Source: a virus (lineage: Duplodnaviria; Heunggongvirae; Uroviricota; Caudoviricetes). From it: a DNA stretch of 17,145 nt. Below are positions 267-11,587 of this stretch, one piece after another (the stretch's first letter is position 1; every line of letters starts with the position of its first letter). The stretch lies in IMG/VR virus record IMGVR_UViG_3300029843_000117; one strand, 5' to 3'. The position numbers were made by a program, and so were the translations under genes. The notes under the pieces are model-generated. The model saw nothing but the letters and a program-made list of their open reading frames with translations. It made no database searches and had not been told where the DNA came from.

Positions 267-1319
267 TTACGGGGTAATGCCAACCGCTGCCGCCACTTTG
301 TCGCCACTTGGCAGCGTTGCCAGAGGATTGAAACGGAGCGCCGTTTCTAGATGATCCGGTGCCAGATGTGCGTAACGCATAGTCATTTTTATATCGTGGT
401 GTCCGAGAATTTTTTGTAAGGCCAGAATGTTTCCACCCGACATCATGAAGTGCGCCGCAAACGTATGGCGCAGAACGTGTGTGAGTTGACCGCGAGGGAG
501 CACGATAGACGTTTTTTCCATCACGGATAAAAATTGAAAATAGCAGTCTGTGAAGAAATTGAACCCATCAAGCGCCATGATCTCTTCGTAAAGCTCTTTA
601 CTGATAGGGATGCTTCTGTTTTTCTTCCCCTTCGTTCTGACAAAGGTAATTCGGTATTTGGTCACCTGTGAGCGGGTAAGATTTACGGCTTCACGCCAGC
701 GTGCGCCTGTGCTTAAGCATATCTTAACTACCAGTGCCAGAATTGGGTCCTGACGTTTGCAATCAGCCAGCAATTCAACAATCTGCTCATGGGTAAGCCA
801 TGCCATCTCTTTTTCTGCGATGGTGAATTTTCGCATGTTCTCCAGTGGGTTCGGATACGACCATTCGCCCAGACGGGATAGTTCGCTAAAAACACTACTT
901 AGATAGCTTTGCTCCAGGTTAATGGTGACCGGGCTTGCTCCTTTCTTCCATTTCTCGCTGAAGTAGATCTCGCCTGTCAGGCGTTTATCTCGATAGTGGG
1001 CAAACATTTTAGAGGTGAGATCGGTTGCAAGAGGATTGCCCAGAGCGTCAACCATCAACAGCAATTTGTCATAGACATGCTGCCCAGCTGTCAGAGATTT
1101 ACCATGTAGTTTGAACCATAGCTCAACCACGTCTTTCAGTGTTCGACGATCCACTGATTCACCCAGCCAGGGCTTTGCTTCGGTTTCTTCCATCGTGTGG
1201 CGCTCAAAAGCCAGTGCTTCGCCTTTGGTGGCGAATTGTTTACGCACACGACGCCCACTTCGTCCGGCGGGGTAACATTCGCAAAGCCATTTCCCTGTGG
1301 TTAGTTTTCGTACTGCCAT
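267..1319 (-). CDS. int: Phage integrase, tyrosine recombinase (P2/186 Int-like)
   Basis: 350-aa ORF. The C-terminal region has tyrosine-recombinase hallmarks (..LPRGQLTHVLRHTFAAHFMMSGGNILALQKILGHHDIKMTMRYAHLAP..). It sits next to the att core at the prophage edge. Confidence 0.9.
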   Translation of the reverse strand: MAVRKLTTGKWLCECYPAGRSGRRVRKQFATKGEALAFERHTMEETEAKPWLGESVDRRTLKDVVELWFKLHGKSLTAGQHVYDKLLLMVDALGNPLATDLTSKMFAHYRDKRLTGEIYFSEKWKKGASPVTINLEQSYLSSVFSELSRLGEWSYPNPLENMRKFTIAEKEMAWLTHEQIVELLADCKRQDPILALVVKICLSTGARWREAVNLTRSQVTKYRITFVRTKGKKNRSIPISKELYEEIMALDGFNFFTDCYFQFLSVMEKTSIVLPRGQLTHVLRHTFAAHFMMSGGNILALQKILGHHDIKMTMRYAHLAPDHLETALRFNPLATLPSGDKVAAAVGITP

Positions 1320-1320
1320 A

Positions 1321-1346
1321 AAAAGCCCTCATATCAGAGGGCTAAA
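1321..1346 (-). terminator. Hairpin plus U-tract on the minus strand between the cargo gene and the int start
   Basis: Minus strand reads agccctc-tgatat-gagggct followed by ttttt, immediately before the int ATG. May attenuate read-through from the upstream cargo gene and cI. Confidence 0.3.
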
Positions 1347-1401
1347 TTTAACTGTATATGTAACCAGTAATCAATGTGTGATTACTATGAAACATACATT
1401 G

Positions 1402-3078
1402 CTAAGCAACATGTAGTTCATCGTTGGCGGAAGTGGCTGCTTTGCGCTCCTGCTCAATAGCTAGAGACTCTCTATATTCTTTCGCCTCTGCAAACATTGT
1501 CCAGTGGGCGTTGATGTTCATGTCTTCAATAACTGATTTGATTTCTTTTAAATTTACGTTAAAAAACTCTTTTCGTGAGTTAATTTTATTGACCTGCTTT
1601 TCGTTGAAAACTTTATGCAGATGGTTTTCTAATGATGGTGCATCATCACTATAAATCATCGCATGAACATCGAACGAAAAAGGAACACTAGCATCTCCGA
1701 GTTCACGAACACGATCAAGTGGTTCAAGGCGGCGTGTCATTCCAATTTTATATACATCTTCGCCAAATGAACCAATATTACTAATGATATAGACGTGGCC
1801 TGATCTGGTTTGTTGAGCCATAGAAATAGCTCGTTGATTTTTAGCTTCAGCTTCTTCATATTTTAACTGTAGTTCAGCTATTTTTTGCTCTAAAGCTAAG
1901 CGTTGTTCTTCATTTGCAAGCATAAGTTCTTTCGTTGCTTTATTTATAGCTTGCTGAATAGCTTTTTCTTCTTTTTCAGCTTCTTTTATCGCTTTTTCAT
2001 ATTCTCTACGAGCTCTTTCCTCTTCACGAAGCTGTTCTTTAATCCTTCTTTGCTCTTCTTTTTCTTCGAGCATAATTTCATTAACTGCTACACCCCATTT
2101 TAGCTCGTTGAGTCTTGCCTGAAGATAGATGTCACTTATTTTTGCGGACCTAAAGGCAGAGCCATTGTAATTTACTAGTTGAAATGCATCTTTTATTTCT
2201 TGGGAAAGTTTTCCAAAATTGTTGTGTTTGACTTTTGATAAAATACTGTCAACTCTTCCATTGAAGGCATCCAAAACAAAGTTTATGGCAGTATTACGCC
2301 TGTTTTGCTCAACATAATCACACGAAGCAGCTTTATTAGTTTTTATTAATGATTTGGTTAACTCTCTGGCTTTTTGTAATTCCTTGCCTGCATCTGTAAA
2401 TTCATAATTTTCTGCCAGCTCATCAAGTACACTACGGTTAGGGATGATCCATTCATCACCATAACCTTCAATTTTATTTTTCATTGATTTTGCAACTGCT
2501 TCATATTTTTCTGCAAACTCTTTAGCTTCATATGCTGAACCAGCAATCTCCTTTGCTCTTTCTTCTGCATCAGAAATAATTTTTACTGCATTGTCATTAG
2601 CATTTGAGATTAGCTCATTTGCTTTATTATTAGCATTATCAAGACGTTCTTTGGCTTTCAGGCGTGCATCGCGAGCGTCTTTGGTGATTGCTATAGCTTC
2701 GCTATTAGCGTTGCTTATTGTCATCTGAGCTTGATAATTTGCTTCGTTTACTGTTTTAGCCGCCTTAATTTGGGCTTCATCTATTTTTTGCTTGGCTATT
2801 GAGTCCGCATTTTTTATCTTATTCTCTGCATCCATTACTGCGCTGTGCAATTCTTCGTATTGCCACAATGGTGCTGCTCGCCCTTCAAGCTCTGATAATT
2901 CTCGTACGGTCTGTGCTAGTTTTTCTTGATTTTCAATCAGTTGGTTAGAAAGGGCTATGTTGTTAGCTGTCAGGTTATCTATAGCCGCTTTGTGTTTTTT
3001 ACTTTGTTTAAATAATATTACAGCTAGAACAGGGGCGAGAAATGCTAATAAGAGTATAACGATGGCAAATGAATTCAT
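1402..3078 (-). CDS. Cargo protein: N-terminal transmembrane helix, long coiled-coil region, C-terminal T5orf172/GIY-YIG-like domain (DUF4041-type architecture)
   Basis: 558-aa ORF. N-terminus is hydrophobic (FAIVILLLAFLAPVLAVILF). The middle is K/E/A-rich with heptad-like pattern. The C-terminus reads GHVYIISNIGSFGEDVYKIGMTRRLEPLDRVRELG..., resembling the T5orf172 (GIY-YIG-like) signature. Visibly AT-rich relative to neighbours. A plausible RBS (aaggat) lies upstream, and it ends 20 bp before the cI stop. Confidence 0.8.
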   Translation of the reverse strand: MNSFAIVILLLAFLAPVLAVILFKQSKKHKAAIDNLTANNIALSNQLIENQEKLAQTVRELSELEGRAAPLWQYEELHSAVMDAENKIKNADSIAKQKIDEAQIKAAKTVNEANYQAQMTISNANSEAIAITKDARDARLKAKERLDNANNKANELISNANDNAVKIISDAEERAKEIAGSAYEAKEFAEKYEAVAKSMKNKIEGYGDEWIIPNRSVLDELAENYEFTDAGKELQKARELTKSLIKTNKAASCDYVEQNRRNTAINFVLDAFNGRVDSILSKVKHNNFGKLSQEIKDAFQLVNYNGSAFRSAKISDIYLQARLNELKWGVAVNEIMLEEKEEQRRIKEQLREEERARREYEKAIKEAEKEEKAIQQAINKATKELMLANEEQRLALEQKIAELQLKYEEAEAKNQRAISMAQQTRSGHVYIISNIGSFGEDVYKIGMTRRLEPLDRVRELGDASVPFSFDVHAMIYSDDAPSLENHLHKVFNEKQVNKINSRKEFFNVNLKEIKSVIEDMNINAHWTMFAEAKEYRESLAIEQERKAATSANDELHVA

Positions 3079-3098
3079 TTTAAAATCCTTTTACTATA

Positions 3099-3695
3099 TT
3101 AATTCGAGACTATTGTACTTCTTATACAAGCAACCACTTCAATATCAGAAAATGCACATTCAAAGCTATTCTCTGCTGTTGTAATTTTAATCATTCCTTT
3201 AGGAAGCCTTGTGATTTTTCGAATGGAATAGGTTCCGTCGATATTGATTAACCAGTTTCCATCAAGTACTTCAGAAAATTTTTGATCACAAATGTATGTG
3301 ACGAGTCCATCCTGAACAACAATTGGTGATGAAAGGTTTGCAGGAAGAAATGATGAATCGAAGACATATGAACCGTCTTCAATCATTTTGCCTGCGGCAA
3401 GGCGAAACTTAACAAGCTCTTCTGTAGCTGCTGTCAGCGAGCTTTGCTTAAGGCCTTGTCCGGTAGTTAACCATTTGAGGGAGGTTCCTGTTTCAAGAGC
3501 ACATTGGATTATCCAGTCAGCAGGAAATGTATCCCGCAAATACCTGTTCGCTAGTGTGCTTTTTGATACTTCCAAGTGATCAGCTAAAGCCTGTCGTGTC
3601 GTAAAGCCATAGGCTTCGACTAATCGCTCAATCGCAGCCTTACCACCTTTATTGGGATTTATTTTGATCTCACTTGGGTACTTTGATGTTGACAT
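3099..3695 (-). CDS. cI: Phage 186 CI-like immunity repressor (N-terminal HTH, C-terminal oligomerisation domain)
   Basis: 198-aa ORF with an HTH-like N-terminus (GFTTRQALADHLEVSKSTLANRYL). Size and position (divergent from apl/cII, upstream of int) match 186 cI. Confidence 0.7.
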   Translation of the reverse strand: MSTSKYPSEIKINPNKGGKAAIERLVEAYGFTTRQALADHLEVSKSTLANRYLRDTFPADWIIQCALETGTSLKWLTTGQGLKQSSLTAATEELVKFRLAAGKMIEDGSYVFDSSFLPANLSSPIVVQDGLVTYICDQKFSEVLDGNWLINIDGTYSIRKITRLPKGMIKITTAENSFECAFSDIEVVACIRSTIVSN

Positions 3696-5845: not shown

Positions 5846-6699
5846 GCACCATCCTGAAATGGGCGGGAAATAAAACCGCCATTATGCCAGAACTGAAAAA
5901 ATACCTTCCTGCTGGCCCGCGACTGGTTGAACCTTTCGCGGGTTCCTGTGCTGTGATGATGGAAACGGATTATCCCAGCTATCTGGTTGCGGATATTAAT
6001 CCTGATTTAATCAACCTCTATAAAAAGGTTGCCGCTGATTGTGAATCGTTTATATCTCGCGCCAGAGTTTTATTTGAGATCGCAAACAGGGAGGTGGCTT
6101 ATTACAACATAAGGCAGGAGTTTAACTGCTCAACTGAAATTACTGATTTCATGAAAGCGGTATATTTCCTGTATCTCAATCGTCACGGTTACCGTGGTTT
6201 ATGTCGCTATAACAAGAGCGGGCATTTCAACATTCCCTACGGTAATTATAAAAATCCGTATTTCCCTGAAAAAGAACTTCGCACATTTGCAGAAAAAGCC
6301 CAGCGAGCAACGTTTATCTGCGCCAGCTTTGATGAAACGCTGGCGATGTTGAAGGCGGGAGATGTGGTGTATTGCGATCCGCCATATGACGGTACGTTTT
6401 CCGGCTATCACACTGATGGTTTCACTGAAGATGACCAGTATCACCTGGCATCCGTTCTTGAACATCGGTCATCAGAAGGACATCCGGTCATTGTTTCTAA
6501 CAGTGACACATCCCTGATCCGTTCGCTGTATCGCAATTTTACTCACCACTATATCAAGGTAAAACGCAGCATCGGTGTGGCAGCTGGCGAGGGTAAATCA
6601 GCAACAGAAATCATTGCTGTTTCCGGGCCGCGCTGCTGGATGGGATTTGATTATTCGCGTGGCGTGGATAGTTCTGCCGTGTACGGAGTACGTGCATGA
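5842..6699 (+). CDS. dam: DNA adenine methyltransferase (Dam-like, N6-adenine)
   Basis: 285 aa from ATG 5842, with RBS ggaggtg at 5831-5837. Contains the SAM-binding motif ILKWAGNK near the N-terminus and the catalytic DPPY motif ([10 protein letters not shown]). Confidence 0.85.
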
Positions 6700-9136
6700 G
6701 TCATGCCGATATGAACAACTGCTGCGGCTTTAACGAGGCTGCCGCAGCATTCTCATGGAACAGCCCGAAAAAGGCCATTAACCCTTATCTGGACCCGGCG
6801 GAAGTTGCGCCGGTTTCTACGCTTTCAAACCTGATCACTCTGTACGCTGCCGATAACGAGCAGGAACAGTTGCGCCGCGAGGCACTGAGTGATCAGGTCT
6901 GGGAGCGTTATTTCTTTAATGAATCACGTGATCCTGTCCAGCGCGAAATGGAGCAGGATAAGCTCATTAGCCGGGCAAAGCTGGCGCATGAGCAGCAGCG
7001 TTTTAATTCAGACATGGTCATTCTGGCGGACGTCAACGCCCAGCCTTCCCATATCAGCAAGCCGCTGATGCAACGTATTGAATACTTCAGCAGCCTGGGC
7101 AGGCCAAAGGCTTATTCCCGCTATTTACGTGAGACGATTAAGCCATGTCTGGAACGACTGGAGCATGTACGCGACAGTCAGCTATCTGCATCTTTTCGCT
7201 TTATGGCAAGCCATGAAGGGCTGGACGGCCTGCTGATCCTGCCTGAAATGAGTCAGGATCAGGTGAAACGCCTGTCCACCTTGGTAGCTGCGCATATGAG
7301 TATGTGCCTTGATGCAGCTTGTGGTGATTTGTATGCCACCGATGACGTTAAGCCAGAAGAAATCCGCAAGACATGGGAAAAGGTGGCAGCGGAAACCCTG
7401 CGTCTGGATGTCATCCCACCTGCGTTTGAGCAACTCCGTCGGAAAAGAAACCGCCGTAAACCCGTGCCGTATGAACTCATTCCGGGTTCGCTGGCGCGTA
7501 TGTTGTGCGCCGACTGGTGGTATCGGAAATTATGGAAGATGCGTTGCGAATGGCGGGAAGAGCAGTTGCGCGCTGTTTGCCTGGTCAGCAAAAAAGCATC
7601 TCCTTATGTCAGCTATGAAGCCGTGATGCATAAACGTGAGCAGCGCCGTAAGTCGCTGGAGTTTTTCCGTTCTCATGAACTGGTGAACGAAGACGGCGAC
7701 ACGCTGGACATGGAGGATGTGGTAAACGCCAGCAGCAGCAACCCTGCGCATCGCCGCAATGAGATGATGGCCTGTGTTAAAGGTCTGGAGCTTATCGCGG
7801 AAATGCGCGGTGACTGCGCCGTTTTCTACACTATCACCTGTCCGTCGCGTTTCCATTCCACGCTAAATAACGGCAGACCAAACCCGACCTGGACAAACGC
7901 GACGGTAAGACAAAGCAGCGATTATCTGGTCGGCATGTTTGCTGCATTTCGTAAGGCGATGCACAAAGCCGGGTTGCGCTGGTATGGCGTGCGGGTGGCT
8001 GAGCCGCATCATGATGGCACAGTTCACTGGCACCTGTTGTGTTTCATGCGCAAAAAAGACCGCCGTGCCATCACTGCATTACTGCGTAAGTTTGCCATCC
8101 GTGAAGACCGCGAGGAGCTGGGCAATAACACTGGGCCGCGCTTTAAGTCTGAGTTGATTAACCCGCGCAAAGGAACGCCGACAAGCTACATCGCGAAATA
8201 TATCAGTAAGAACATTGACGGTCGTGGTCTGGCTGGCGAGATCAGCAAGGAAACGGGTAAATCTCTGCGTGATAACGCTGAATACGTGAATGCCTGGGCG
8301 TCTCTGCATCGTGTTCAGCAATTCCGCTTCTTTGGTATTCCGGGGCGTCAGGCTTACCGTGAACTTCGCTTGCTGGCTGGTCAGGCGGCAAGGCAACAGG
8401 GTGACAAAAAAGCAGGTGCGCCGGTACTGGATAACCCGCGTCTTGATGCCATTCTGGCTGCTGCTGATGCTGGTTGTTTTGCCACCTACATCATGAAGCA
8501 GGGCGGCGTACTGGTTCCCCGTAAATATCACCTCATCAGAACCGCTTATGAAATCAACGAAGAGCCGACCGCCTATGGCGATCACGGCATTCGTATTTAT
8601 GGCATCTGGTCACCCATTGCAGAGGGCAAGATCTGCACTCATGCAGTGAAGTGGAAAATGGTTCGTAAAGCCGTTGACGTTCAGGAGGCGGCAGCCGACC
8701 AGGGCGCTTGCGCCCCTTGGACTCGTGGCAATAACTGTCCCCTTGGACTCGTGGCAATAACTGTCCCCTTGCTGAAAATTTGTACCAACAAGGGAAAGAC
8801 AAATCAGCTGATGGGGATACCAGAACGGATATCACCCGCATGGATGACAAGGAATTGCACGATTACCTGCACAGTATGAACAAAAAAGAGCGTCGGGAAC
8901 TGGCTGCAAGGTTACGCCTGGTGAAACCGAAACGGCGTAGAGACTACAAACAGCGAATTACAGATCATCAGCGACAGCAGCTCGTCTATGAACTGAAGTC
9001 CAGAGGATTTGATGGCAGCGAGAAAGAGGTCGATTTACTCCTTCGCGGCGGCAGCATTCCGTCAGGAGCAGGCCTGCGTATTTTCTATCGGAACCAGCGT
9101 TTGCAGGAAGATGATAAGTGGCGGAACCTGTATTAA
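6696..9136 (+). pseudogene. A: Replication initiation endonuclease A (P2 gpA-like, HUH rolling-circle initiator), frameshifted by a 26-bp tandem duplication
   Basis: The frame-0 ORF 6696-8879 (727 aa) carries the HUH-like motif TVHWHLLCF and the tyrosine motif YIAKYISK. Downstream, ORF 8780-9136 in frame 2 continues the protein exactly if one 26-bp repeat copy (8739-8764) is removed, which would give a continuous ORF of about 804 aa. Confidence 0.75.
8713..8771. repeat. Tandem direct repeat: 26-mer ccccttggactcgtggcaataactgt, two full copies plus a partial 7 bp
   Basis: 8713-8738 and 8739-8764 are identical base for base, and 8765-8771 repeats the first 7 bp. 26 is not a multiple of 3, so the duplication shifts the A reading frame. 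Confidence 0.9.
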
Positions 9137-9228
9137 TTACGCGGGTTAACAATTCGTGCTCTTAATAATACCAGGTATATCAGGCTGATGAACGTAAAAA
9201 AACGTTTTACATCAGTAAGATTATTATA

Positions 9229-9248
9229 TACTGTAAATATAAACAGTG
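9229..9248. promoter_or_regulatory. LexA box (SOS operator): TACTGT-N8-ACAGTG
   Basis: tactgtaaatataaacagtg matches the consensus CTGT-N8-ACAG with an AT-rich spacer. It overlaps a -10-like tatact/tatata and lies about 45 bp upstream of the ORF at 9290. Confidence 0.7.
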
Positions 9249-9289: not shown

Positions 9290-9478
9290 ATGCAGGACTA
9301 TTTTTTGGAGTCTTTGAAGCTCCAGCGCATTGATTTTTTTCTTAAGCTTGTAGCGGCTAGTGAGTGTAGTGATGAAGAGAAGGGGCTGGCCCTGCAGTGG
9401 GTTTCTGAACTGACAGATGAACTCATGGCAAAAATCAGAACCCACGAATACAACCGCTCAATGGATGTCATCAGCTGA
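9290..9478 (+). CDS. Small hypothetical protein, first gene of a putative SOS-inducible operon (Tum-like region)
   Basis: 62 aa from ATG 9290, with RBS aggagga at 9280-9286, downstream of the LexA box. Confidence 0.5.
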   Translation: MQDYFLESLKLQRIDFFLKLVAASECSDEEKGLALQWVSELTDELMAKIRTHEYNRSMDVIS

Positions 9479-9488
9479 GGTGACTTTT

Positions 9489-9722
9489 ATGCGCATTGAA
9501 ATAATGATCGATAAAGAGCAGAAGATTAGCCAGTCTACCCTGGACGCCCTTGAATCCGAGCTTTACCGCAATCTGCGCCCCCTGTATCCCAAAACGGTAA
9601 TTCGCATTCGCAAAGGTAGCTCTAACGGTGTGGAACTGACCGGACTGCAACTGGACGAAGAAAGGAAGCAAGTGATGAAAATTATGCAGAAGGTGTGGGA
9701 AGACGACAGCTGGCTGCATTAA
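9489..9722 (+). CDS. DinI-family protein (DinI/Tum C-terminal-like)
   Basis: 77 aa: MRIEIMIDKEQ..LDALESELYRNL..YPKTVIRIRKG...KQVMKIMQKVWEDDSW. Resembles E. coli DinI as recalled (MRIEV..IDALAGEL...WESADDW). RBS gaggtg at 9477-9482. Confidence 0.7.
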   Translation: MRIEIMIDKEQKISQSTLDALESELYRNLRPLYPKTVIRIRKGSSNGVELTGLQLDEERKQVMKIMQKVWEDDSWLH

Positions 9723-10009: not shown

Positions 10010-11587
10010 ATGGATATCAACTATGTTGTTTCAAAAATGGGGTTCGTAGATGATCTTATTAATGCAGGTTCATTTGATTCTGCCTATAAAAATGTAAAGG
10101 ATATTCTTAACGGTATCGATGAGATAAATACAATCAAAGAAAATAGAATAATTATATTATCTAATTTGGCCGGAAATCTTATTGATATCGGAAGTTTTAG
10201 TAATGTAAAAAATATAGCGGAGGAAGGCTTAAATATCTTTATAAACAATAAAAATGAATTTCTGACTATAATGAAAGAATCCTTATATTACTATAACTTG
10301 GCAAATGGAATGAGCGCAGTTCTTGATTTTAATCCTAATGACAATGCAGATATTGATAGTTTCATTAAGCTGAATGATGTAAAAAATAATTACTGGAAAG
10401 CGTTTAAACTTTCACAAGAAGATGGATGGGTGCCCCCTGATTTAATAGTTAATCTAGCTAATGTATTAAAAAAACAATATCGTATATCTGAATCAATGGA
10501 TTATTATGAACAAGCAATATCTATTGATAACTCAATTCCTCAGGCGTGGGTAAACAGATCTGAGGCATTAGAATTGCTTAATGAATTATCTACAACATAT
10601 ACATATAAAATGATTAAAGAAGTTATTCGAGGTTATGAGTGTGCAATAAAGTCAGGGAAATGTTTTCCTTCATGGAAGGTTGCTCTTCAAAGAAAAATAA
10701 AGTACAACGAAAGTATATTGAGTGAATCATGTGTATATGGCATAGAGGATATAAGTACAGATGAAAGGCTCACGCAGGAGGAGTATGATACTTTATCAAA
10801 CTACCAGAGGTTTTGTATAGATAATAATCTAATGTTGTCTGATCATTCGCTATATTGCAATTGTTATGCGTCATCTAAAGATAATATAACTATTGCTACC
10901 ACCGAGGAAGGTGTGTTTGGTGATTTTATAGTGCCAATGGAAATGGTGTTAAATAGACTTAAAGCTGAGTATTCCTTAGCACGAAAAATGTTTTTTGAAT
11001 ATAAGGTTGATAGTGAGTTTTTTGATGAGGATTCGGAGGTATGTTATTCTGAATTGTATAATGGAGAAATATTGTATGAAAATGTTGAGAAGTTAAGGGT
11101 TGCATTTAGAGCTTGCTTTGGTATCTTGGATAAAATAGCAGTTGCTCTGTGTCAATTATTTGATTTAAAACCAGATAGAGGACATATATACTTTCATAAC
11201 TTCTGGCGGATTAGTGATGAAAAAAGAAAGCTTAAAATAAACAAAATAAATAATAAAGGATTGCTGGGTTTGTTTAGTATTGCTATGGATTTGAATGATA
11301 AAAATGGTGAGCTTGCTTTTTTTAAAGAATGGAGGAATGATTTAGAACATAAACTGTTAGTTATTCACGAGAAAGACATGTTAGTTGATTTATATAATTC
11401 TTATGGGTTTTTTGATGAGGTGAGGTTTATTGAGAAAGAAAAGTTTGAGAAACAGCTCTTACAACTCATGAAAATTGTGAGATCAGCCGTTATTCTTTTT
11501 GTGTTTACCATACGTATAGAGGGGAAAAAAAGTATTCCTAAAGATATGTTGACCATTAAAAATACCATCGAGAGAAAAGTATTGTAG
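10010..11587 (+). CDS. Cargo protein with TPR-like N-terminal region and C-terminal HEPN-like domain (Rx4H motif); candidate abortive-infection or defence RNase
   Basis: 525-aa ORF, strongly AT-rich. RBS gagg at 10001-10004. TPR-like segment SMDYYEQAISIDNSIPQAWVNRSEALELLNE. C-terminal FFKEWRNDLEHKLLVIHEKD contains R-x4-H, the HEPN signature. A perfect -10 TATAAT lies at 9969-9974. Confidence 0.8.
   Translation: MDINYVVSKMGFVDDLINAGSFDSAYKNVKDILNGIDEINTIKENRIIILSNLAGNLIDIGSFSNVKNIAEEGLNIFINNKNEFLTIMKESLYYYNLANGMSAVLDFNPNDNADIDSFIKLNDVKNNYWKAFKLSQEDGWVPPDLIVNLANVLKKQYRISESMDYYEQAISIDNSIPQAWVNRSEALELLNELSTTYTYKMIKEVIRGYECAIKSGKCFPSWKVALQRKIKYNESILSESCVYGIEDISTDERLTQEEYDTLSNYQRFCIDNNLMLSDHSLYCNCYASSKDNITIATTEEGVFGDFIVPMEMVLNRLKAEYSLARKMFFEYKVDSEFFDEDSEVCYSELYNGEILYENVEKLRVAFRACFGILDKIAVALCQLFDLKPDRGHIYFHNFWRISDEKRKLKINKINNKGLLGLFSIAMDLNDKNGELAFFKEWRNDLEHKLLVIHEKDMLVDLYNSYGFFDEVRFIEKEKFEKQLLQLMKIVRSAVILFVFTIRIEGKKSIPKDMLTIKNTIERKVL

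Follow-up and report, generated by a model that had tools for sequence, protein, structure and literature searches.

SNIPE, or PD-lambda-1 (PMC13190303, PMC9519451), is a GIY-YIG nuclease of the inner membrane; experiments showed that it cuts siphovirus DNA while this is being injected (Vassallo 2022; Saxton et al., Nature 2026; PMC13190303). Its DUF4041 domain binds the tape measure protein as well as DNA, and its N-terminal region has been proposed to contact ManYZ (PMC13190303). Only the protein of E. coli ECOR26 has been shown to be localised to the inner membrane, to act as a nuclease on injected DNA, to protect directly (non-abortively) and to associate with ManYZ and the tape measure protein (PMC13190303). 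This reference SNIPE (RCP76574.1) is also annotated in phage PhiR26_1, where the PD-lambda-1 protein is identical to our comparator at 499 of 500 residues. The comparator carries E223, W257 and E414, and its Pfam coordinates agree with Vassallo's table. Zorya and Kiwa are, like SNIPE, defences associated with the membrane, for which an action on phage DNA during or immediately after injection has been proposed (PMC13190303), but they are multi-gene systems of unrelated proteins, and the PADLOC scan revealed no sequence relation to them.

K139-like P2-related Vibrio phages hold defence genes in the slot between cI and int (Rousset et al. 2022, PMC9122126), and the old/tin (gpA-portal gene) and Z/fun hotspots of P2 likewise carry prophage anti-phage cargo in the Peduoviridae. 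The gene described here lies in neither P2 hotspot, which differ from it in locus and in gene families. It is a 558-aa ORF that occupies the cI-int gap of a 186-like prophage in the window (the whole stretch of 17,145 nucleotides that was analysed). We consider it probable, at roughly 0.82, that this gene is a SNIPE-family (PD-lambda-1) single-protein anti-phage defence. The features of the locus are as follows.

267..1319, minus strand: tyrosine integrase (int), 350 aa (Pfam Int_N and Phage_integrase)
1320..1401, minus strand: int leader, with a promoter-like motif (TTGAyy-N17-TTAAAT), an imperfect upstream hairpin and a terminator-like hairpin at 1324..1343
1402..3078, minus strand: SNIPE / PD-lambda-1 family gene, 558 aa (PADLOC, PHROG, RefSeq name)
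1519..1800, minus strand: C-terminal T5orf172/MUG113 (GIY-YIG-type) nuclease domain, aa 427-520 (Pfam)
1804..2133, minus strand: second long helix, linking DUF4041 to the nuclease, aa 316-425 (AF2 helices 316-387 and 390-425)
2134..2466, minus strand: globular middle region with DUF4041, aa 205-315 (Pfam, AF2)
2467..3009, minus strand: N-terminal helical stalk, aa 24-204 (AF2 helices 2-179 and 181-204)
3010..3069, minus strand: predicted N-terminal TM helix, aa ~4-23 (Kyte-Doolittle; helical in the AF2 model)
3079..3098, minus strand: spacer between cI and the SNIPE gene, 20 nt (sequence read)
3099..3695, minus strand: cI repressor, 198 aa, upstream gene of the lysogenic transcription unit (Pfam Phage_CI_repr E=8e-32, Phage_CI_C E=3.5e-27)

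A sequence-only reading had placed a conspicuously AT-rich 558-aa gene with its own ribosome-binding site 20 nt downstream of cI, in a range (1321..3098) nearly identical to the interval from the cI stop to the int start (1320..3098), and this layout was borne out. The Shine-Dalgarno motif AAGGA lies at 3086..3090 on the minus strand, with the ATG of the SNIPE gene 7 nt further; a hairpin or promoter-like site was looked for in the spacer at 3079..3098 and none was found. The GC content of the gene is 37.0%; the window has 46.4% and int 48.9%. The cI gene also reaches only 40.2%, so that cI and the SNIPE gene form a single low-GC module. Identical copies of this cI are named 'phage repressor protein CI' in RefSeq, and the int protein is 100% identical to the integrase of vB_EcoM-813R9. 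The same reading had described cI and int of 186 as adjacent and co-transcribed in the lysogen, in agreement with the phage 186 record, where the two genes overlap by 1 nt inside the annotated lysogenic operon. The window also holds a low-GC TPR-HEPN gene at the old/tin position.

No named defence family had been assignable from the sequence, but the family does have a name, PD-lambda-1 or SNIPE. The PADLOC PD-Lambda-1 models PDLC03976/03977 matched with 400.7 bits (E=2.4e-120) and 389.1 bits (E=7.9e-117) over aa 106-550, covering profile positions 36-481 of 491; the reference SNIPE protein reaches 659 bits against the PD-Lambda-1 models. PHROG 1847 was matched at E=6.6e-133. RefSeq contains 99.8%-identical copies in an equivalent cI-x-int context with the product name 'SNIPE associated domain-containing protein', and NCBI entries 100% identical to the window protein exist. 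These matches establish the family membership of the gene.

The structure was predicted with AF2 from an alignment of 94 diverse homologues (mean pLDDT 82.9); a model built from only 25 sequences of 82-100% identity had a mean pLDDT of 51.9 and was discarded. The retained model has the order TM helix, stalk, globular domain, helix and beta/alpha domain. The 19-residue Kyte-Doolittle mean rises to 3.16 in the TM helix and never exceeds 0.7 in the rest of the protein, as expected from the single N-terminal TM helix proposed before, and a comparable segment is present in 82 of 92 homologues. The basic stretch KQSKKHK directly after the helix predicts that most of the protein is cytoplasmic. DUF4041 (PF13250) was matched at aa 267-322 (nt 2113..2280) with 46.6 bits (cut-off 27, E=3.1e-12), and pLDDT is ~90-95 across aa 230-330. 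The roughly 350-aa coiled coil of the sequence-only reading was an approximation: the model has two long helices (2-204, near-continuous, and 316-425), separated by a globular DUF4041 region of ~110 aa (205-315). The second long helix corresponds to SNIPE residues 255-355 in the alignment.

The GIY-YIG-like T5orf172 assignment of the C-terminus held up in Pfam, with T5orf172 (PF10544) at aa 427-520 (63.3 bits, E=3.2e-17) and MUG113 (PF13455) at aa 443-520 (72.7 bits, E=3.7e-20); these and the DUF4041 match all exceed the gathering cut-offs. The key residues follow the order of the GIY-YIG superfamily (VY430, Y443-K-I-G446, R449/R450, E484 and N497). Across 92 diverse homologues Y430, G446, R449, R450, E484 and N497 are invariant; Y443 lies within the conserved YKIG motif, yet is not invariant. 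The AF2 model places the secondary-structure elements of the domain in the order beta-beta-alpha-beta-alpha. Pfam searches with 20 nuclease domains (E<=10) gave no match to the canonical GIY-YIG model PF01541, only to T5orf172 and MUG113, and a PDB sequence search with the full protein and the nuclease-domain profile returned no relative. When the whole model was used for fold searches, coiled-coil matches dominated, and the GIY-YIG nuclease Slx1 appeared only non-significantly (E ~0.9). An hhalign comparison of the nuclease profile with I-TevI (sequence checked against 1MK0) was uninformative, the template being one sequence.

Compared with the reference SNIPE, the window protein has the same single-gene organisation and the same order of TM helix, helical stalk, DUF4041, long helix and T5orf172/GIY-YIG nuclease. 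It keeps the catalytic Glu, E484 aligning with SNIPE E414, and the conserved GIY-YIG-type residues, and it is likewise prophage-borne. BLASTP aligned the two proteins over aa 265-555 (DUF4041 and nuclease) with 50% identity (E=4e-77), whereas overall identity to the characterised SNIPE is only ~35%. The N-terminal 264 aa gave no BLASTP alignment to the reference, in which the non-aligning part comprises 195 aa; the full proteins have 558 and 500 aa. The tape-measure specificity positions also differ (E223 to S292, W257 to K327), so the target range and membrane partner of SNIPE are not transferable to the window protein. The genomic settings are distinct as well: the reference gene is carried by a lambdoid prophage, flanked by ren and a Rha-like gene, with its neighbours on the other strand, and the window gene sits directly behind cI in the lysogenic unit of a 186-like myovirus prophage. 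The 558-aa protein is a divergent SNIPE orthologue with a putative function.

The earlier reading described the gene as inserted in the cI-int operon. It is no newcomer there: 7/7 close cI relatives, from seven species, carry the gene 19-20 nt after cI. The spacer motif GTAAA(A)GGATT, which includes the ribosome-binding site, is conserved in the seven orthologous loci, and amino-acid identity across these loci is 82-96% for cI and 80-97% for the SNIPE-family protein. We also rejected a recent insertion as the cause of the low GC content, because cI is low in GC too and the pair has apparently co-diverged across genera. A dN/dS of 0.048 against the closest orthologue points to strong purifying selection; against the others dS is saturated and dN is ~0.1. 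The stalk evolves fastest (dN 0.11-0.19; DUF4041 and nuclease regions, 0.05-0.09). Klebsiella, Citrobacter, Salmonella, Enterobacter and Raoultella have close orthologues of the gene. Of 5,426 complete E. coli genomes, ~165 (~3%) contain the gene, a count almost equal to the 163 E. coli genomes that have its cI type. Judged by these sequences, the gene and this cI type form a fixed pair in the lineage.

The cI-int slot differs between cI types: it is empty in 186 and ESSI2_ev040 and holds two unknown ORFs in 4LV2017. Within the present cI type SNIPE is constant, and variation is limited to a second, downstream position. In the window and in four of the seven orthologous loci, cI and int are the immediate neighbours of the gene; the remaining three have an extra ORF that is not common to all seven, and there is no conserved partner gene. 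After SNIPE, ~1 kb of additional sequence is present in Raoultella, Citrobacter and an Enterobacteriaceae genome. Relatives with other or extra cargo in the slot partly resemble the K139-like hotspot, but unlike that hotspot the slot in this cI lineage is not freely variable, and SNIPE was present in every close cI relative examined.

A terminator-like hairpin before int, noted previously, is real (stem 1343..1324, 7 bp, with a U5 tract abutting the int ATG), but it belongs to the int leader and did not arrive with the gene. The int Shine-Dalgarno motif GAGGG lies in its 3' arm, and the leader folds at -30.3 kcal/mol (z=-5.2). The final ~60 nt of the leader are kept in the seven loci irrespective of the upstream gene, SNIPE or an extra ORF, and analogous hairpins occur in 4LV2017 and ESSI2_ev040. 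The hairpin is also conserved before int in relatives with another ORF, different cargo or no cargo; it is a backbone feature of the int leader and not SNIPE cargo.

The layout suggests that in the lysogen cI and the gene most probably share one transcript, started at the lysogenic promoter, because the spacer is only 20 nt, no terminator lies between the genes and the ribosome-binding site is the gene's own and conserved. Co-transcription would in turn mean constitutive production by the prophage. By analogy with the characterised SNIPE, membrane anchoring would keep the GIY-YIG-type nuclease off the chromosome. Upon genome injection by a foreign phage, with siphoviruses the likeliest targets, the DUF4041 region may contact the tape-measure or injection complex and the incoming DNA, and the C-terminal nuclease, with E484 as its putative catalytic Glu, would cut the entering DNA. 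The lysogen, and hence the prophage, would be protected against unrelated phages; the carrier, as a P2/186-like myovirus, belongs to a class outside the targets of the characterised SNIPE. The membrane-tethered, prophage-expressed anti-phage or exclusion effector envisaged from the sequence alone is supported in this sense by the PADLOC match, the shared domain order, E484 and the precedent of SNIPE.

Tentatively, and with more doubt than conviction, we suggest that the 558-aa clade may form a distinct SNIPE subtype. Its longer, fast-evolving N-terminus and altered DUF4041 surface would provide for another membrane partner and phage range than those of the ManYZ- and lambda-directed ECOR26 protein, and the gene would be inherited and expressed together with one cI immunity type as a 'repressor plus entry-nuclease' module.

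A use of the same machine as the 186-like phage's own superinfection exclusion, cutting the DNA of P2/186-like myoviruses or other non-siphoviruses through a membrane partner other than ManYZ, appears improbable. It would suit a gene fixed beside this cI type across genera, resembling part of an immunity module, with an N-terminal adapter region and DUF4041 specificity positions unlike those of the characterised SNIPE. A gene of VPUSM 8 annotated as Glo, which we take to be an exclusion gene, also adjoins int. Against these points, and against the defence genes in the equivalent slot of K139-like P2-related phages (PMC9122126), stands the observation that the characterised SNIPE affected no myovirus or podovirus of the BASEL set and works via siphovirus tape measure proteins (PMC13190303). 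Homo-immunity is, moreover, already supplied by cI.

For the SNIPE-type defence preferred here, survival of the infected cell is expected by analogy, as direct defence and not abortive infection. Many prophage-borne nucleases work by abortive infection, and an abortive-infection toxin, released from the membrane or activated by infection to degrade host DNA and kill the cell, would accord with the high toxicity and chromosomal double-strand breaks caused by TM-less SNIPE (PMC13190303). We regard this as very unlikely for the window protein: cells with full-length SNIPE survived infection and grew even at high MOI, unlike the abortive-infection control (PMC13190303), and the TM anchor is widely retained among the homologues.

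Two phage GenBank records label the gene 'chromosome segregation ATPase', an annotation that we rejected because the matches are confined to the coiled coil. Although the T5orf172 nuclease type also occurs in homing endonucleases and the coiled coil gives weak matches to SMC and LmuB, neither a selfish free-standing GIY-YIG homing endonuclease nor a structural SMC-like protein is a credible reading, since a membrane-anchored protein whose gene keeps its place and spacing, apparently co-diverges with cI and has a low dN/dS does not suit a mobile homing element, SMC_prok_A reached only 15.5 bits (cut-off 729.4) over aa 319-431, and no ATPase family was matched among the Pfam or NCBIfam models.

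The family, its mechanism and the carriage of defence genes by prophages have all been published already, and the gene is in this respect real but ordinary; the additions made here are modest, namely the strict linkage to cI and the divergence of the N-terminal region in this clade. If the clade is indeed a distinct subtype, immunity and heterotypic exclusion would travel as a unit in this prophage lineage of the Enterobacteriaceae. The SNIPE-family reading makes the locus an example of a temperate phage arming its lysogen, with a putative entry-blocking nuclease placed in the sole transcription unit to remain active in the prophage. Its carriage by E. coli at the frequency given above bears on the prediction of phage host range and of the outcome of phage therapy.

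The window comes from a 186-like prophage (Peduoviridae), of which it covers the left end. Over the first 9.7 kb it shares 99.3% identity with Escherichia phage vB_EcoM-813R9, whose record continues on the integrase side into rcdA and further chromosomal genes. The interval between repressor and integrase is filled by an open reading frame (ORF) of the SNIPE family:

3099..3695, minus strand: cI (Pfam Phage_CI_repr and Phage_CI_C)
1402..3078, minus strand: SNIPE-family ORF, 558 aa, filling the cI–int interval
267..1319, minus strand: tyrosine integrase (int)

The sequence-only reading had assigned a 558-aa gene to 1321..3098, essentially the entire cI–int interval, and placed it 20 bp after cI with its own ribosome-binding site. 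Both points are borne out by a 20-nt spacer and an AAGGA motif 7 nt ahead of the ATG; a consensus scan of this spacer revealed no promoter- or terminator-like sites. In phage 186, described there as having adjacent, co-transcribed cI and int, the two genes indeed overlap by 1 base inside an annotated lysogenic operon. The conspicuous AT-richness of the ORF holds against the window (37.0% versus 46.4% GC; int, 48.9%), but cI is likewise low at 40.2%. Low GC is shared by the two genes, and the ORF is not AT-rich alone.

The window gene belongs to a defence family that already has a name, experimental characterisation and annotation, and occupies a type of slot already known for defence genes. 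PADLOC, suggested as a check on the original guess of a membrane-tethered nuclease acting as an anti-phage effector, matched the protein with two PD-Lambda-1 models (E=2.4e-120 and 7.9e-117), which establishes family membership. PD-lambda-1 came to light when E. coli fosmids were screened functionally (ECOR26, RCP76574.1, 500 aa), and has been renamed SNIPE and characterised (Nature 2026; PMC13190303); the functional guess was right. PHROG 1847, a group without an assigned function, also matched (6.6e-133), and 99.8%-identical copies, likewise in a cI–x–int context, carry the RefSeq product name 'SNIPE associated domain-containing protein'. The family comprises 3,368 clusters (50% identity) at E<=1e-3 and 1,409 at E<=1e-30; tblastn matches were found in 41 phage records, with hosts including Streptococcus, Corynebacterium, Clostridium, Synechococcus and Marinitoga. 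Two GenBank phage records (L001 9473..11149; L003 1738..3414) label the gene 'chromosome segregation ATPase'; the protein has no ATPase domain, and the label appears to be a coiled-coil-driven misannotation.

A single strong hydropathy segment at residues ~4–23 (mean up to 3.16), followed by KQSKKHK, establishes the membrane anchor as the one N-terminal TM helix proposed earlier; no other hydropathy peak in the protein exceeds 0.7. The domain order is established by three Pfam matches over their gathering scores, among them the C-terminal T5orf172 domain already anticipated:

aa 267-322: DUF4041 (46.6 bits)
aa 427-520: T5orf172 (63.3 bits)
aa 443-520: MUG113 (72.7 bits)

We take T5orf172 and MUG113 to be members of the GIY-YIG Pfam clan. 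An AF2 model built from an alignment of 94 diverse homologues (mean pLDDT 82.9) predicts a near-continuous helix (2–204), a globular region (205–315), a second long helix (316–425) and then a C-terminal domain of beta-beta-alpha-beta-alpha order. The supposed coiled coil of roughly 350 aa is thus retained as predicted helical segments of ~180 and ~110 aa, but these are split by the globular DUF4041 domain.

The reference SNIPE was taken from an E. coli chromosome (L004) and is 499/500 identical to the PhiR26_1 CDS annotated 'PD-lambda-1'; it carries E223, W257 and E414, and its Pfam coordinates agree with Vassallo's listing. Residues 265–555 of the window protein align with reference residues 196–487 at 50% identity (E=4e-77), while the first 264 aa gave no BLASTP alignment to the reference; overall identity in the family alignment is about 35%. 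The catalytic E414 aligns with E484 of the window protein. Two SNIPE positions that retune tape-measure recognition when mutated differ, E223 being replaced by S292 and W257 by K327. Conservation of the catalytic residues is established by 92 diverse homologues, in which Y430, G436, G439, G446, T448, R449, R450, E459, P466, F467, F469, E484, N497 and F506 are invariant; as a sequence pattern, these match the GIY-YIG order Tyr, Tyr-x-Gly, Arg, Glu, Asn. A sequence search returned no PDB relatives, and the Pfam search no direct PF01541 match. The putative GIY-YIG assignment is based on the residue pattern, the T5orf172/MUG113 Pfam clan, and published HHpred and E414A data. Unlike the window gene, reference SNIPE (L004 4984..6486; PhiR26_1, L048 1571..3073) is carried by a lambdoid prophage, where it is flanked by ren and a Rha-like/P22AR-domain gene and runs on the strand opposite to its neighbours. 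A siphovirus prophage thus bears SNIPE, a system shown to restrict lambda.

A cI protein search with one genome per species yielded seven close relatives (82–96% identity), from Silvania, Klebsiella michiganensis, Dryocola, Raoultella, Citrobacter pasteurii, an Escherichia species and an Enterobacteriaceae genome. All seven are followed, 19–20 nt past the cI stop, by a 558- or 565-aa orthologue (80–97% identical), with a common ribosome-binding region, GTAAA(A)GGATT. Among complete E. coli genomes, this cI occurs in 163 and this gene in 165 (at least 80% coverage), and the order cI–gene–int was found in all three chromosomal contexts and both phage records inspected. Between genera, synonymous sites are saturated and dN is about 0.1; the closest orthologue has a dN/dS of 0.048. 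Purifying selection and the fixed place behind cI are thereby established, and an 'inserted' gene in the sense of a recent arrival is contradicted. The TM helix and stalk evolve at two to four times the non-synonymous rate of DUF4041 and nuclease, in agreement with the variable N-terminal 'adapter' of the published SNIPE picture (PMC13190303). In E. coli 13E0780 (L047 2384..2980), the annotation makes the linked cI a pseudogene with an internal stop but gives the neighbouring SNIPE as an intact CDS; decaying prophages may keep the defence gene.

The terminator-like hairpin noticed before int is real, but its association with the ORF did not hold:

1343..1324, minus strand: terminator-like hairpin, 7 bp (5 G-C), 6-nt loop, U5 running straight into the int AUG

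A 92-nt segment that covers the gap (1310..1401) folds with z=-5.2, and the int Shine-Dalgarno sits in the hairpin 3' arm. The last ~60 nt before int, including TTGAyy-N17-TTAAAT, are kept in all seven orthologous loci, after SNIPE or another ORF alike, and analogous hairpins precede int in Klebsiella phage 4LV2017 and cargo-less ESSI2_ev040. Since the hairpin is conserved whatever precedes int, it belongs to the int leader and may attenuate the expression of int from the lysogenic transcript. The leader suggests separate or attenuated int control, unlike the cI–int overlap of 186. The spacer of the promoter-like motif contains an ACTGT...ACAGT inverted repeat (1320..1401, minus strand; also L008–L014, the orthologous loci). 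The hairpin comes after this motif and sequesters the int Shine-Dalgarno.

Three of the seven orthologous loci (L011, Raoultella; L012; L014) have an extra ~1 kb between SNIPE and int, which in Raoultella (8311..9240) codes for a 309-aa ORF matched by neither Pfam nor PADLOC. Under other cI genes, the slot is empty in 186 and ESSI2_ev040 and holds different cargo in 4LV2017, whose int is near-identical to that of the window. The 4LV2017 cargo (L002 1247..1849, 1854..2900) consists of a 349-aa ORF and a 201-aa ORF reading as hydrophobic, both without Pfam or PADLOC matches, and adjoins a 313-aa cI with a duplicated HTH. The extra slot ORFs in relatives are possible defence genes. A cI–int defence hotspot of P2-related phages has been reported for K139-like Vibrio phages (PMC9122126). 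In ESSI2_ev040, an AbiJ-like gene lies downstream of int (L007 4743..5561; PADLOC E=3e-16), placing accessory defence on the other side of int.

Elsewhere in the window, the replication endonuclease gpA (6696..8879, plus strand) contains a 3-nt insertion at 8696..8698 and, at 8713..8771, 2.3 tandem copies of the 26-bp unit CCCCTTGGACTCGTGGCAATAACTGT, compared with 1.3 in vB_EcoM-813R9. A frameshift shortens the protein to 727 aa from 803; the final ~133 aa can still be read in a different frame as far as 9133. Either the prophage may be replication-defective or the frameshift may be an assembly error. A 525-aa ORF (10010..11587, plus strand), the window's lowest-GC stretch (30.8%), encodes TPR repeats and a C-terminal LA2681-like HEPN domain (Pfam E=1.8e-38). 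It lies in the P2 old/tin hotspot, flanked by gpA and a DinI-like gene (9417..9722) on one side and the portal gene on the other; vB_EcoM-813R9 has other cargo here. PADLOC assigned it to no system; it may be a second defence gene.

SNIPE is constitutively localised to the inner membrane, with a periplasmic N-terminus and the remainder cytoplasmic; its DUF4041 binds DNA, and E414A abolishes defence (PMC13190303). SNIPE lacking the TM helix is toxic because the chromosome is then cut (PMC13190303). It cuts phage DNA during injection, spares the DNA of an induced prophage and gives direct protection that leaves the cell alive; siphoviruses are restricted, but no myovirus or podovirus of the BASEL set is (PMC13190303). 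By analogy with this homologue, the window protein would sit at the inner membrane with its nuclease in the cytoplasm and would cleave phage DNA as it enters at the injection site, a direct defence preferring siphoviruses; the layout suggests that the gene is transcribed constitutively together with cI in the lysogen. What remains of interest is how strictly SNIPE is linked to cI and how far the N-terminal region has diverged in the window clade. For a myovirus prophage, bearing a myovirus-sparing system would be biologically sensible.
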